Origin: Eledone cirrhosa
Lineage: Eukaryota
Length of the DNA: 64,000 bases
NCBI GenBank assembly: GCA_964016885.1
Contig: OZ024754.1
Span: 36,270,001-36,334,000 of the forward strand
Direction: 5' to 3'
The notes under the pieces were generated by a model that ran no database searches, had not been told where the DNA came from, and saw nothing but the letters and a program-made list of their open reading frames with translations. The translations under genes were made by a program, and so were the position numbers. Below are positions 622 to 58,020 of this stretch, piece after piece. Numbering within the stretch: the stretch's first letter is position 1; each line of letters begins with the position of its first letter.

Positions 622-799
622 TAACAAAGGAATTGTGGTAAGGAACCGTAACGCACCGGAGTACTCAATACGTAAGAGTGGGAAATAGGAAAAAGTATGA
701 CCCCGACGGCAGAGCTAGAGCCGTTTCGACGGCTATTTCTGGACTGAAATAGCCGTCGAAACGGCTTGAGCTCTGCCGTTGGGGTCGTACTTTTTCCTA
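622..799 (-). mobile_element. Family A fold-back element (subfamily A2), (TA)n-flanked, putative PLE pLTR derivative
   Basis: Inverted arms taggaaaaagtatgaccccgacggcagagct...agctctgccgttggggtcgtactttttccta plus a one-sided tail; homologous to copies at 1.9, 19.3, 43.4, 50.3, 56.7 and 57.8 kb. Confidence 0.8.
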
Positions 800-1456
800 T
801 ATATATATATATATATATATATATATATATATATATATATATATATATATGTGTGTGTATGAATGTATGTATGCACATATATGTGTATATATATCTCGTA
901 TATTCAGAATATGCTTAGTGCCTTTACCACATATACCATAAAACAAGCACATGTGTGTTTATGTGTGCGTATATATTATGTATGTTTATGTGTGCGTATA
1001 TACACATACGGTAAACTAAGCCACACACATACAAGACAGATCTATATAGATACACATGTATAGATGAGAAACATGAGAAACAAAGCAAAATGATCCCACA
1101 CTATGCTGCTATTTCTCAGTAGCATTTCGTTTTCTGAATTGCGTAGGGTAATTGATTATCGATTTATAGATCTACTATGTTCATGGAATATTCATTAAAG
1201 TTATTCTATTACTGTTGTTGATTAACGCTTGAATAATCTATTGGTTTCTCTCCCTTATTATTTATAAATGCTATTGGTTTAAACTCTTTAGGGTCTTCAG
1301 ATGTCAACCTTAATTATACATTGCACAAGTTGTGTCGTTAGGCTTTTGTATATGTATATATATATATATATATATATATATATATATATATATATATAGA
1401 GAGAGAGAGAGAGAGAGAGAGAGATAGATATATAGATATATACTGTATATATATGT

Positions 1457-1541
1457 ATGTAAAATGTAAACAGAAATAACAACACAGTCGCTACAGTATA
1501 TTAGGTTAACGCTTGATATAGTAGGAAGAGGGTCTTAACGT
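1457..1541 (-). mobile_element. Family B PLE-like end fragment, truncated at the HHR stem III palindrome
   Basis: Matches 43967-44065 and 50077-50175; homology stops at ggtcttaacgt. Confidence 0.65.
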
Positions 1542-1644
1542 GTGTTTGTGCGCGCGCGTATATATATATATATATATATATATATATATATATATATATA
1601 TATATATATATATATATATATATATATATATACATATACATATA

Positions 1645-1895
1645 TGTAGAAGTTCTATTTAAATTGTTGGGATACAACAAGCAAATATTTTTATAACTGA
1701 TATAAAGCACTCAACAAATAATTGGAGTAAAAATACGATATTAACAAATGGAAGCTATATTTATAAAACCATATTTATTTCATTATACATATTTCAAGGA
1801 CACCAAGTTAAATTATGGTGTGCTTTCATCAGATAAAATATAATATAGAGCAGTTTTTAATGAAATAAATATGGTTTCCATTTTTAATATCGTAT
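1645..1895 (-). mobile_element. (TA)n-flanked asymmetric fold-back element with HHR
   Basis: 1858-1895 is an inverted copy (with internal deletion) of 1733-1785; tail 1645-1732; (TA)n on both sides. Confidence 0.65.
1780..1836 (-). ncRNA. Minimal type-I hammerhead ribozyme
   Basis: Minus strand UUAU-CUGAUGA-AAGCACACCA(loop)UGGUGUCCUU-GAAA-U-AUGU-AUA/AUGA: intact core, 10-bp stem II with one mismatch, 4-bp stem I. Confidence 0.7.
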
Positions 1896-1926
1896 ATATA
1901 TATATATATATATATATATATATATA

Positions 1927-2120
1927 TAACGAAGGAAATGTGGTAAGGAACCAGGTGGACGATAACGCACCAAAGTACTCAATACTTAGGGTAGTAGAGT
2001 GGGTAATAGGAACAAGTAAGACCCCGACGGCTGAGCTCAAGCCGTTTCGACGGCTAATTCTGGACTGAATTAGCCGTCGAAACGGCTTGAGCTCAGCCGT
2101 CGAGGTCTTACTTGTTCCTA
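1927..2120 (-). mobile_element. Family A fold-back element (A1)
   Basis: Tail 1927-2006, then ~55-bp inverted arms around ctggactg; (TA)n on both sides. Confidence 0.85.
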
Positions 2121-2455
2121 TATATATATATATATATATATATATATATATATAATTGAAAAAGTGAAGAATAACATGATCAACAGTATAAACAATGAAA
2201 TTTATTCACAGTCTAACAATTGTTTCTATGATGGAGTTGTCTAAAAATTGCTAAACACTGAAGTTAGTGGCACTCAATTTAAAAGATATGCAACATCCAT
2301 CATTTCGTCATTGTTTTCACAACCTCTTATCGGATTACCTTTAACTATATATTGTTATCCTATATATATATATATATATATATATATATATATATATATA
2401 TATATATATATATATATATATATATATATATATATATATATATATATATAAATAT

Positions 2456-3020
2456 ATAAAATATTAAACAAATAATGAATAAAACAATGAAACAGTTCCT
2501 TATATTAAACAAAAAAAGTTCATTATTTAACGATCGTTTCTAGGATATATATGTGTTAGAATTGGCATGCATATTCAACAGATCTATGTACAAAATTATA
2601 CAAAATTATACAAACTATCAAAATTAAATATACATACCCAACACATATATATGCCGTCTTCAGAAATAATAATTTATTTCTGAAGACGGCATATATATGT
2701 GTTGGGTATGTATATTTAATTTTGATAGTTTGTATAATTTTGTATAATTTTGTACATAGATCTGTTGAATATGCATGCCAATTCTAACACATATATATCC
2801 TAGAAACGATCGTTAAATAATGAACTTTTTTTGTTTAATATAAGGAACTGTTTCATTGTTTTATTCATTATTTGTTTAATATTTTATCTTGACTCTGTAT
2901 TCCGTTTATCTTTCACCGAAAGTGATTTTTCATTGCATCTCTTCTTTCCATGATATCCGGATTACATTGAGTTCTTCATACGGATTGGACACTACCGTAA
3001 ACTCTTGGTAGATTTATCTA
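2456..3020 (+). mobile_element. Family C fold-back element: 214-bp inverted arms plus 133-bp tail between (TA)n tracts
   Basis: 2456-2669 is the reverse complement of 2674-2887 (4-nt spacer taat); unique tail 2888-3020; solo arm homolog at 37555-37737. Confidence 0.85.
2674..2820 (+). ncRNA. Hammerhead-like motif with ~115-nt stem II (mirror copy at 2523-2669, minus strand)
   Basis: UUAUUU-CUGAAGA...AUAUAUAUGUGUU/AACACAUAUAUAU...GAAAC-GAUC-GUU/AAAUAA; 6-bp stem I, palindromic ACGAUCGU stem III; imperfect stem II base and weak GUU site. Confidence 0.6.
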
Positions 3021-3129
3021 CATATATATATATATATATATATATATATATATATATATATATATATATATATATATATATATATATATATATATATATA
3101 TATATATATATATATATATATATATATAT

Positions 3130-55065: not shown

Positions 55066-55251
55066 AGGTGGATTGGCAGTATCGGTAGAGGGTCGGACGC
55101 CATGCTTTCCAGCATAGTTACGTCCCTTTACGATCTGAGTTCAAATCCCGCCGAGGTTGACTTTGCCTTTCACCCTTACGGGGTCGATAAAATAAAGTAC
55201 CAGTAAGACACTGATATAATTGCTGGCCTTGTGCCAAAAGTAGAAACAATT
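55066..55251 (+). mobile_element. Meta-type SINE
   Basis: Near-identical to 42485-42673. Confidence 0.85.
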
Positions 55252-56094
55252 ATTTATTTATATGTAGTATTTCTCAGGAAAGCATAAATGATACATATGT
55301 TGACATTCCATTTTTCAACGTATCATAACGTAAGAATATGTATAAAGATCACACCTCCATCGCTTAAAGAAAAATAGACTCCGCGTGCTGTTTAGAAGTA
55401 TACTGCTTTATATATGTCACTAATTGCCTTGCGCAGATAGTAGTTAGATTTATAAATTCAAGCAAGTTTTGCCGTACCTGCCCGTGTCGGATGATACTCA
55501 GAACTTATCCCGGTTTTATAGGGAGTCCGTCTCGAAAGGTTAAACCCCAACTGATTCTGGTAACCATTTTCAGCTGCATAGATTGGATCAACGTGAAACG
55601 AAATATGTTCAAAAACACAACGCACGATCCGGGCAAAACCAACCAGCGGCACCCATTGGACCGAGTGTTTGAGGACTCTACCCCAACGACATTCGTAGGA
55701 ATAATTGGACGAAGAAGAAGAAGAAGAAGAAGAAGAAGAAGAAGATATATATATATATATTTTTATTATTTACTTATTTTGTTATTTACATATTATTTTC
55801 TTTATTTTGTTTATATTATATATTATTTTCTGTATATTGTGTTGTTTATTATGTAATTAAATAGCTCTGTACAATACATAGAGCACTCTTCGTTCCTTTA
55901 CCTTTTCAACTGAAATACCAAACACATAAGACATATATATATATATATATATATATATATATATATATATATATATATTAACAATGAAAGAATGAGAGAA
56001 TAATCGTTTTACGATCGGTTCTGCTTTGTGGAATATACATAATTTATATATTACTATATATATATATATATATATATATATATATATATATTAA

Positions 56095-56282
56095 TAATAA
56101 TAAATGTGAAGACTAAAATCCAAAGAGGGCTCGATAAGGATTATATATATAAAAGCAGCGATTTTTTGCTTAAACTTTAATCTGTTATTTTAATAAATGT
56201 TTGCTCTATGGTTCTTATATATTTGATATATATTTATCCTTATCGAGCCCTCTTTGGATGTTAGTCTTCACATGTATTATTA
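56095..56282 (+). mobile_element. Family E variant with inverted tail at the left end
   Basis: tgtgaagactaaaatccaaagagggctcgataaggat / atccttatcgagccctctttggatgttagtcttcaca. Confidence 0.75.
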
Positions 56283-56509
56283 TTTCTCTCTCCCCCCCCC
56301 CTCTCACTCTCTCTCTCTCTCTCTCTCTATATATATATATATATATATATATATATATATATATATATATATATCAATGATATTAATAAATGGAAACTTC
56401 GAATCTGTTATAAATATATTTGTGGAATTACCAACAAATTAAATATCTCTTTGCTTATATATATATATATATATATATATATATATATATATATATATGA
56501 TATATTTGA

Positions 56510-56675
56510 TATATCTCATATGAAATAATACAGCCAATTATCCACACAATACAATATAGTTAGCACCCCAAACGTTTAATTGGGAATATACTCAGATATT
56601 TCCTAATGTTTGTTGAGTGAGTTGGAATTTGGCCTGGCCGGAGTATCGCTATTAGCTTTCTCCGATTATGTATTT
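56510..56675 (+). mobile_element. Family F tail
   Basis: Diverged reverse complement of 24976-25135. Confidence 0.6.
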
Positions 56676-56742
56676 ATATATATATATATATATATATATA
56701 TATATATATATATATATATATATATATATATATATATATATA

Positions 56743-56974
56743 TAGGAACGAGTAGGACCCCGACGGCTGAGCTCAAGCCGTTTCGGCGGGTAATTCTGGA
56801 CAAGAATTCAGTCCTTAAGTGATTTAATAATTTCAGTCCAGAATTAGCCGTCGAAACGGCTTGAGCTCAGCCGTCGGGATCCTACTCGTTCCTATTACCC
56901 ACTCTACTACCCTAAGTATTGAGTACTTTGGTGCGTTATGGTCCACCTGGTTCCTTACCACATTTCCTTCGTTA
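56743..56974 (+). mobile_element. Family A element (A1) with captured flanking DNA in the spacer
   Basis: Inverted arms plus tail; spacer 56812-56832 is the reverse complement of 57239-57259. Confidence 0.85.
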
Positions 56975-57824
56975 TATATATATATATATATATATATATA
57001 TATATTAACAATGAAAGAATGAGAGAATAATCGTTTTGCGATCGGTTCTGCTTTGTGAAATATACATAATTTCCATTAAGTGGAAGTTATATATATATAT
57101 ATATAATATATATATATATATATATATATATATATATATATATATATATATATATATATATTTATATATATAACTCTATCTTTGCTGCATATCCAGTTCT
57201 AAGTTGATTTGAAATCCTGCTACAATCAATCAGTCTGCAATTATTAAATCACTTAAGGATTACTTCCGAACTATTGGATGTTTTGAAGTGTTCGTACACT
57301 GCTCCAATCTTCCGTGGTTTCAACAAGGCTTTCAAGAGTCTACTTCTTCTATATCTACTCTGCCTCTTCCCACGTATAGAGTACTCTTCTGATTTCTAGT
57401 CTGTCTCTGCGGTCTCAGCACTGCAGAATCTCTCTCTCGCTCTCTCTTACTCTCTCTTTTTATCTCTCTCACCCCCTCTCTCTCCCTCTCTCTCTCGGTC
57501 CCTCTTTTTCGATGTATAAGTATACATACATATAAGGCATATATTTGTGAGTGTGTATATATATAAATATATATATATATATATGCATATATATATGTAC
57601 GTTTATATATATATATATATATATATGTAATATATATAATATATATATATATATATATATACATATATAAGTTTATATATATATACATATGTATATATGT
57701 ATATATATATATATATATATATATATAATATATATATATATATATATATATATATATATATATATATATATATATATGTGTGTGTGTGTGTGTGTGTTTG
57801 TTTATATATATATATATATATACA

Positions 57825-58020
57825 TAACAAAGGAATTGTGGTAAGGAACCAAATGGACCATAACGCACCAGAGTACTCAATACTTAGGGTAGTAGAGTGG
57901 GAAATAGGAAAAAGTATGACCCCGACGGCAGAGCTCAAGCCGTTTCGACGGCTATTTCTGAACTCAGAAATAGCCGTCGAAACGGCTTGAGCTCTGCCGT
58001 CGGGCTCATACTTTTTCCTA
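57825..58020 (-). mobile_element. Family A element (A2)
   Basis: Tail 57825-57904, arms around gaactc. Confidence 0.85.

Follow-up and report, generated by a model that had tools for sequence, protein, structure and literature searches.

The 64,000-nucleotide stretch of Eledone cirrhosa DNA analysed here (contig OZ024754.1, positions 36,270,001 to 36,334,000; hereafter the window) contains seven hairpin-shaped repeats of 158-228 nt, each flanked by (TA)n runs. By their sequence these hairpins, or stubs, belong to an autonomous Penelope-like element (PLE) of the Hydra type, whose shortest insertions they are, and do not form a separate miniature inverted-repeat transposable element (MITE) or short interspersed element (SINE). 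Comparison of arms in copies across the genome supports the view that the inverted arm is rebuilt at each insertion and is not an inherited terminal inverted repeat (TIR).

Every hairpin consists of a short arm and a longer arm that extends into an 80-nt tail. The short arms of the seven copies end in ..GTTCC, ..TTTCC or ..CTCC before TA, and the long arms in ..CGT or ..TGT before TA, with ..CGC in the 50.3 kb copy. All seven lie where an earlier note, made from the sequence alone, had placed them; of the seven that it called near-complete two are damaged, that at 19281, which is not near-complete, and that at 622, which has deletions in the tail. The central sequence differs among all seven copies, as the earlier mention of a different spacer in each had it. 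No part of the parent open reading frame (ORF) is present in the 64-kb window, and an Rfam scan of the window returned only sub-threshold matches to microRNA-like hairpins.

Copy number and sampling

Genome-wide counts were made with exact patterns over the 3.0-Gb genome; the patterns differ slightly between positions and favour young copies, and the listed matches lean towards the start of contig C1. At least 11,823 two-arm copies were found (exact 16-nt flanks, centres of at most 30 nt) against 0 matches for reversed control patterns, and an exact search for a 24-nt motif of the tail gave 26,783 matches. Fifty-four tails lie within the 484 kb surrounding the window, and single-arm copies also occur. 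Copies are often adjacent and inserted in each other's TA flanks, as at 43398-43841 in the window and at loci L181, L182 and L102. The family, with the drop at its position +1 described below, is visible in contigs assembled from 4 of 6 sequencing runs, which may include the window's own sample and in which no piece spans a whole copy. The same leader was seen in a few contigs of two other organisms (2 and 13 contigs, runs X5 and X6). A T-to-C difference in the first genome search was an effect of the query.

Parent element

In the first search 4 of 30 loci extended upstream, one of them into the end of an endonuclease. A search with this endonuclease-end peptide gave 50,305 first-look candidates, of which 150 were scored and all of these matched; it revealed tandem arrays whose periods are 3531 and ~3542 nt, an arrangement of the pseudo-long-terminal-repeat (pLTR) type. 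The 3531-nt unit carries an open frame of 784 aa, 716 aa from the ATG, with a reverse transcriptase (RT) and, at its C terminus, an endonuclease (EN) of GIY-YIG type, in which the motifs FDIESYY, MG, YRDDG and VIYQ..AYIG can be read. Pfam gave no family for this ORF and the PDB nothing significant, and it has 2,215 unnamed homologues, 13 of the 120 listed being aligned. The Hydra-clade motifs RLRWR (RWK type), SDKTG (DKT) and CNCPDRSIC (a CxCX5C linker) are present, a single Cys lies between VIY and YIG (CCHH absent), and CNLC..E..N..CKH (CxxC and CxH) flanks E and N; the 13 aligned homologues conserve these features. By these motifs the parent matches the Hydra clade as defined in PMC8557442, from which the criteria were taken. 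The Neptune clade, which needs a CX2-5CxxC linker and CCHH, was rejected.

Positions are numbered from the A of TTAGTCC in the parent unit (+1). A stub corresponds to nucleotides +1 to +138, the leader ahead of the ORF, and one of its ends is always +58 and the other +138. The landmarks of the parent are the predicted hammerhead cut after +41, the end of the short arm at +58, the end of the tail at +138 and the ATG at +232; only one such arm is carried per unit. Consistent with a preference for (TA)n, TA follows site 1 (+58) in 109 of the 129 two-arm copies. The earlier reading of the hairpins had overlooked this parent, and also the long copies described below and the fact that each arm contains half of a predicted hammerhead.

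Arrays of 4-5 full-length units lie at G000:C1:437.198-437.214 Mb (L081-L083) and C1:91.474-91.489 Mb (L084-L086); several units keep the open 784-aa frame, and these arrays are candidates for recently active sources. At L023:1001-1620 an inverted arm is followed by three direct units of 248 nt, each beginning near -3 and ending shortly after the ORF start, which may reflect either template jumping or a small circular template.

Comparison of the arms

Arms were compared in the 129 two-arm copies among 256 parsed tail copies. The two arms of one copy differ by 2.1 of 36 nt, compared with 10.2-11.0 between copies, and left arms do not cluster with the left arms of other copies. Both arms belong to the same subfamily in 92 of 94 assignable copies, against 28% by chance (35 copies were unassigned). 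In sets unselected on the joint, 83 of 99 centres are distinct and the repeated centres are simple joins. Because arms match within copies and centres differ between them, the arms appear to be rebuilt, and the divergence check proposed in the earlier note, together with the subfamily concordance and the one arm per parent unit, upholds its claim that the short arm is no inherited TIR. Its own argument, from copy-specific variants, fails since what varies marks subfamilies: for the tail at 57825, and likewise for the end at 50336, 40 of 40 scored matches elsewhere in the genome were at 100% identity. An A-to-G editing skew was not seen among sampled arm mismatches (A/G 40, G/A 44, T/C 67, C/T 79).

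Inversion point and the extra G

Ends between -5 and +16 were found in 143 of 157 tail arms (8 were long) and in 141 of 146 tail-less arms (2 were long). Genome-wide, 19,953 arms reach +1, 4,898 reach -7 and 4,414 carry a motif at about -60, a step followed by a plateau. Inversion points concentrate at a sharp mode near +1 and are not broadly scattered; the inversion point called fixed in the earlier note is thus a mode and not a constant, as long copies of the same anatomy as the stubs invert 0.04-3.2 kb upstream.

Single-arm copies joined directly to (TA)nT (pattern (TA)nT-V-AGT) number 196 genome-wide. In the first 100 listed, counted by hand, the base before +1 is G in 80, A in 14 and C in 6. 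The parent has T at -1 in 103 of 112 long arms, C in 9 and G in none, and the target would supply A, so the G is supplied by neither parent nor target. At the control position +2, 37 copies gave G 19, C 10 and T 8 (Fisher p 7e-4); at -4 only 3 of 15 copies had G, so that there is no cap signal at -4, and a second start there was not supported. A G stands before +1 on tail arms in 1,558 cases and on tail-less arms in 1,282. Of the 30 loci read from each of these two sets, 4 in the tail-arm set and 6 in the tail-less-arm set have a cap-like G on both arms, in some with 0-1 nt between the two. Among the window copies, the 50338 stub has an untemplated C at 50396 past its tail-less arm (G in the RNA sense, likely the cap), and in the 57827 stub a G precedes +1 of the tail arm, although the other arm might equally supply this base.

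A TATA-like run lies at -29 to -22, and +1 falls within the word TTAGTC/TCAGTC, which we take to be initiator-like (Inr-like). Given the step at +1, the extra G and this pair of motifs, the parent transcript likely has its capped 5' end at +1, where RNA polymerase II (Pol II) would start it. The earlier choice between a dedicated short RNA and a strong RT stop can accordingly be narrowed: the stop is best explained by the capped end of the autonomous transcript, and a separate RNA is not needed. In L1 insertions an extra G at the 5' junction marks run-off at the mRNA cap (PMC11702581), and transcription of the D. virilis Penelope starts inside its own pLTR (PMC2377424).

Long copies and proposed mechanism

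The set of long copies (n=21) comprises 20 fetched loci and 2 found earlier, less 1 compound locus, with extents taken by BLAST to two subfamily references. Exactly one tail is present in 19 of the 20 fetched long two-arm loci, L291 being compound. The tail-less arm is the longer in 8 of the 21 copies and the tail arm in 10, the two being equal in 3, and arm extents are uncorrelated (rho 0.19). Short tail arms whose partner was seen have a short partner in 134 of 135 cases and a long one in 1 (13 further short arms were without a partner seen), and this pairing of short with short makes it likely that a single leader is where both complementary DNAs (cDNAs) begin. Behind the two start sites, at 8 and 6 nt respectively, lie bulged hairpins of like shape. 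In vitro, the PLE Poseidon_Ac cleaves both target strands and extends them from two internal sites, and a dimer is predicted (PMC11167929).

We think it probable that the stubs arise by twin copying, in which the leader of a capped sense RNA would be copied twice from two internal start sites with both target strands cut. Because the shared stop is likely the cap, as the extra G indicates, the same leader was likely copied twice, once per cut strand. The enzyme would cut both strands of a (TA)n target, and initiation at +58 and +138, two sites right behind the cap, would give run-off cDNAs of 58 and 138 nt. Both cDNA 3' ends would then be trimmed and end-joined, with microhomology or with small inserts, so that every insertion acquires its own centre. 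Long copies would result from initiation at the same sites of the next tandem unit. Stubs, which are without the upstream half of the promoter and the 5' half of the ribozyme, are probably dead ends.

We give about even odds to the fuller proposition that the genome records the whole insertion reaction: two RTs seated on the twin hairpins of one capped sense RNA, priming at +58 and +138 from opposite strands, both running off the cap and being end-joined, with leader-only "strong-stop" palindromes as the main product and the smaller pile-up at +42 marking cutting by a U3-A8 hammerhead in vivo. If leader-only palindromes are indeed the main product, this would explain the need of PLEs for partial tandems in mobilising the ORF.

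Several points weigh against twin copying from the cap or limit its detail. The start site and the cap are deduced from genomic DNA, target duplications are unreadable within (TA)n, and the template could be either one RNA or two sister RNAs. In 15 of 30 loci of each set the G could derive from the other arm, at +2, too, G is added more often than any other base (19/37), which indicates some general G bias, and 75 of 303 arms pass +1 to reach -1 to -5, without a cap signal at -4; these arms may represent scattered starts or chance AT matches. The two discordant copies among 94, on G000:C14 near 36,248,770 and 36,381,600, could reflect two RNAs or gene conversion, and later deletions within the inserted palindromes could have increased both the asymmetry of arms and the diversity of centres.

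Alternative explanations

An improbable alternative, though the likeliest of the rivals, is that one cDNA reaches the RNA 5' end, folds back and primes itself back to site 1, in which case the cDNA itself would be the template of the short arm; self-priming has been proposed before, with antisense RNA as template (PMC3846280). Folding back would account for arms that nearly always match, for the many centres that are short palindromes, for the nearly equal arms of 3 of 21 long copies and for the pairing of short arms with short ones. However, a self-folded cDNA cannot give the second arm sequence that is missing from the first, and it is disfavoured by the 8 of 21 long copies in which the tail-less arm has such sequence, up to 2.4 kb; L284, with arms 99.5% alike, is a young long copy with arm asymmetry. 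Moreover, tail-less arms carry the cap G as often as tail arms do, 0-1 nt between two caps leaves no room for a hairpin loop, and a G at the sense 5' end implies a sense RNA template, contrary to the antisense form of the model.

Slightly less likely still is that a short non-autonomous RNA of its own kind, resembling a SINE or a retrozyme and transcribed from stubs or from a short master, is mobilised in trans, its 5' end fixing the inversion point. Of 30 loci each for subfamilies D and A2 nearly all are short, internal promoters occur in PLEs (PMC2377424), and the small tandem of 248-nt units at L023 would also fit such an RNA. Yet subfamilies A1, B, C and A2 each include long arms with upstream sequence of the parent, and D arms extend to -6 to -9 into that sequence. 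Centres are not inherited, and stubs lacking half of the ribozyme cannot circularise as retrozymes do.

A stall of RT at an RNA structure (hammerhead stem II) in a long transcript, with no RNA end at +1, we regard as very unlikely. The predicted fold places +1 inside an extension of stem II and many arms end at +2 to +15, as a stall might have it, but this would leave unexplained both the position-specific G, which parent and target lack, and the correctly spaced pair of TATA-like and Inr-like motifs. A MITE with inherited TIRs and TA target duplications, suggested by the small size, inverted arms and TA flanks, is ruled out for practical purposes by the retroelement parent and the arm concordance (92/94), one arm being internal with an 80-nt tail beyond it, the sequence being the leader of an RT-coding element, centres varying and single-arm copies occurring.

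Predicted hammerhead ribozyme

The minimum free energy (MFE) fold of the parent region has the topology of a type I hammerhead with a UUGAGAA core and U3-A8; its stability is not above that of shuffled sequences (z -0.09), and Rfam gave no hammerhead match in this region. Stubs hold the 3' half only, the 5' half being present in the parent. Direct joins of single-arm copies to (TA)nT number 10 at +41, 29 at +42 and 3 at +43, a small peak at the predicted cut, and the copy at 19281 starts there as well, which suggests that some templates were cut and most were uncut. The U3-A8 variant is known from PLEs (PMC4209133). In loci L004, L006, L018 and L026, subfamilies B, C and A2 have U3-A8, and A1 has a C3-A8 mismatch in the core; A1 is widely spread despite this mismatch.

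Relation to known systems

The inverted-copy-plus-tail anatomy, the (TA)n targeting and the two start sites are already published. Insertions of EN-containing (EN+) PLEs show the same head-to-head inverted copy with a tail at one end (PMC8557442, Fig. 2 legend; Pen2a_Av, PMC3846280), the same tandem arrays and a pLTR with TATA and Inr-like motifs. In contrast to these, the leader-only form, with at least 11,823 copies, appears here as the main product, tails measure 80 nt instead of 30-40, and the cap-like G occurs on both arms. With the Hydra clade the parent shares RWR, DKT, the CxCX5C linker, the lack of CCHH, CxxC/CxH around E and N, a C-terminal GIY-YIG-type EN, the (TA)n target and a predicted hammerhead. 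It differs in its unit of 3.5 kb, Hydra units being generally <3 kb, and in its predicted hammerhead, in which stem II is long and the core either is of the U3-A8 type or has a C3-A8 mismatch; its placement is by motifs.

Poseidon_Ac in vitro (PMC11167929) has the same two internal RT start sites bounding the tail, with both strands cut and extended, and the same main template, an uncut sense RNA. That work concerns another clade, and inverted joints and cap run-off are not addressed in the parts of it seen. L1 twin priming (PMC11702581) likewise makes a second cDNA from the other target end and has microhomology joints and a cap G, but L1 cDNAs cover different parts of the RNA, whereas here the same part is covered, giving a palindrome. 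Non-LTR retrozymes (bioRxiv 10.64898/2026.07.22.740005) and the minimal hammerheads of PLEs (PMC4209133) are similarly small, pLTR-derived, gene-less and hammerhead-related. Retrozymes are direct tandem units with a complete hammerhead; the stubs are inverted pairs without the ribozyme 5' half, and their assignment as non-LTR retrozymes was rejected.

The literature searched, which covered few subscription papers, described neither leader-only PLE palindromes that end at the cap nor twin priming by PLEs. How the inverted ends and tails of PLEs form is an open question for which PMC8557442 calls for an in vitro system, and PMC11167929 leaves the later insertion steps unvalidated. Thousands of copies allow predictions at base level: where transcription starts, that the template is a capped sense RNA, that priming occurs twice and independently, and where the ribozyme cuts. 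For repeat annotation it matters that an abundant "MITE-like" or "SINE-like" class can be the by-product of one retroelement.

Other features of the window

The coordinates of the family in the window are collected in Table 1.

Table 1. Copies, fragments and parts of the hairpin family in the window (window coordinates; numbers with a plus sign refer to the parent unit)
Feature	Position	Strand	Remarks
Tail-only fragment	157..207	+	
Two-arm stub, subfamily A2	624..797	-	Tail arm to +1 at 745; deletions in tail
Two-arm stub, subfamily C	1929..2118	-	Tail arm to +1 at 2066
Tail-only fragment	15996..16068	+	
Stub, subfamily A1	19283..19440	+	Tail-less arm 19283-19339 to +2; 4-nt insert
Tail arm of 19283 stub	from 19344 (+42)	+	First base past predicted hammerhead cut; 41 nt missing
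Two-arm stub, subfamily A1, reference copy	43398..43599	+	Tail arm from +1 = 43462
Tail-less inverted arm of reference copy	43398..43451	-	Start site 1 (+58) back to ~+5
3' half, predicted type I hammerhead	43480..43507	+	GAAA, stem III with palindromic loop, stem I strand
Predicted hammerhead GUC cut, reference copy	after 43502	+	Sequence prediction
80-nt tail	43520..43599	+	Start site 1 (+58) to start site 2 (+138)
First of two similarly shaped bulged hairpins	~43528-43551	+	Inside tail
Damaged two-arm copy, older related subfamily	43646..43841	-	Adjoins 43398 copy
Two-arm stub, subfamily D	50338..50539	+	Tail-less arm to +1 at 50395
Two-arm stub, subfamily A1	56745..56972	+	Long AT-rich central insert; tail arm +1 at 56835
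Two-arm stub, subfamily A2	57827..58018	-	Tail arm to +1 at 57964

The window also holds other repeats. A 432-nt near-perfect palindrome (99%) at 2456-2887 adjoins (TA)n, has a one-sided extension and is likely another PLE family of the same anatomy. The hairpin at 11662-11805 carries a U3-A8-like hammerhead motif on both strands, and TA-flanked fold-back elements unrelated in sequence to the family described here lie at 24008-24111, 25507-25837, 56091-56327 and 28534-28760. The sequences at ~3700-4110 and 28250-28500, with a tRNA-like head, are presumably SINE-like. A 48-nt tandem repeat at 8638-9532 comprises 18.5 copies with 91% matches.

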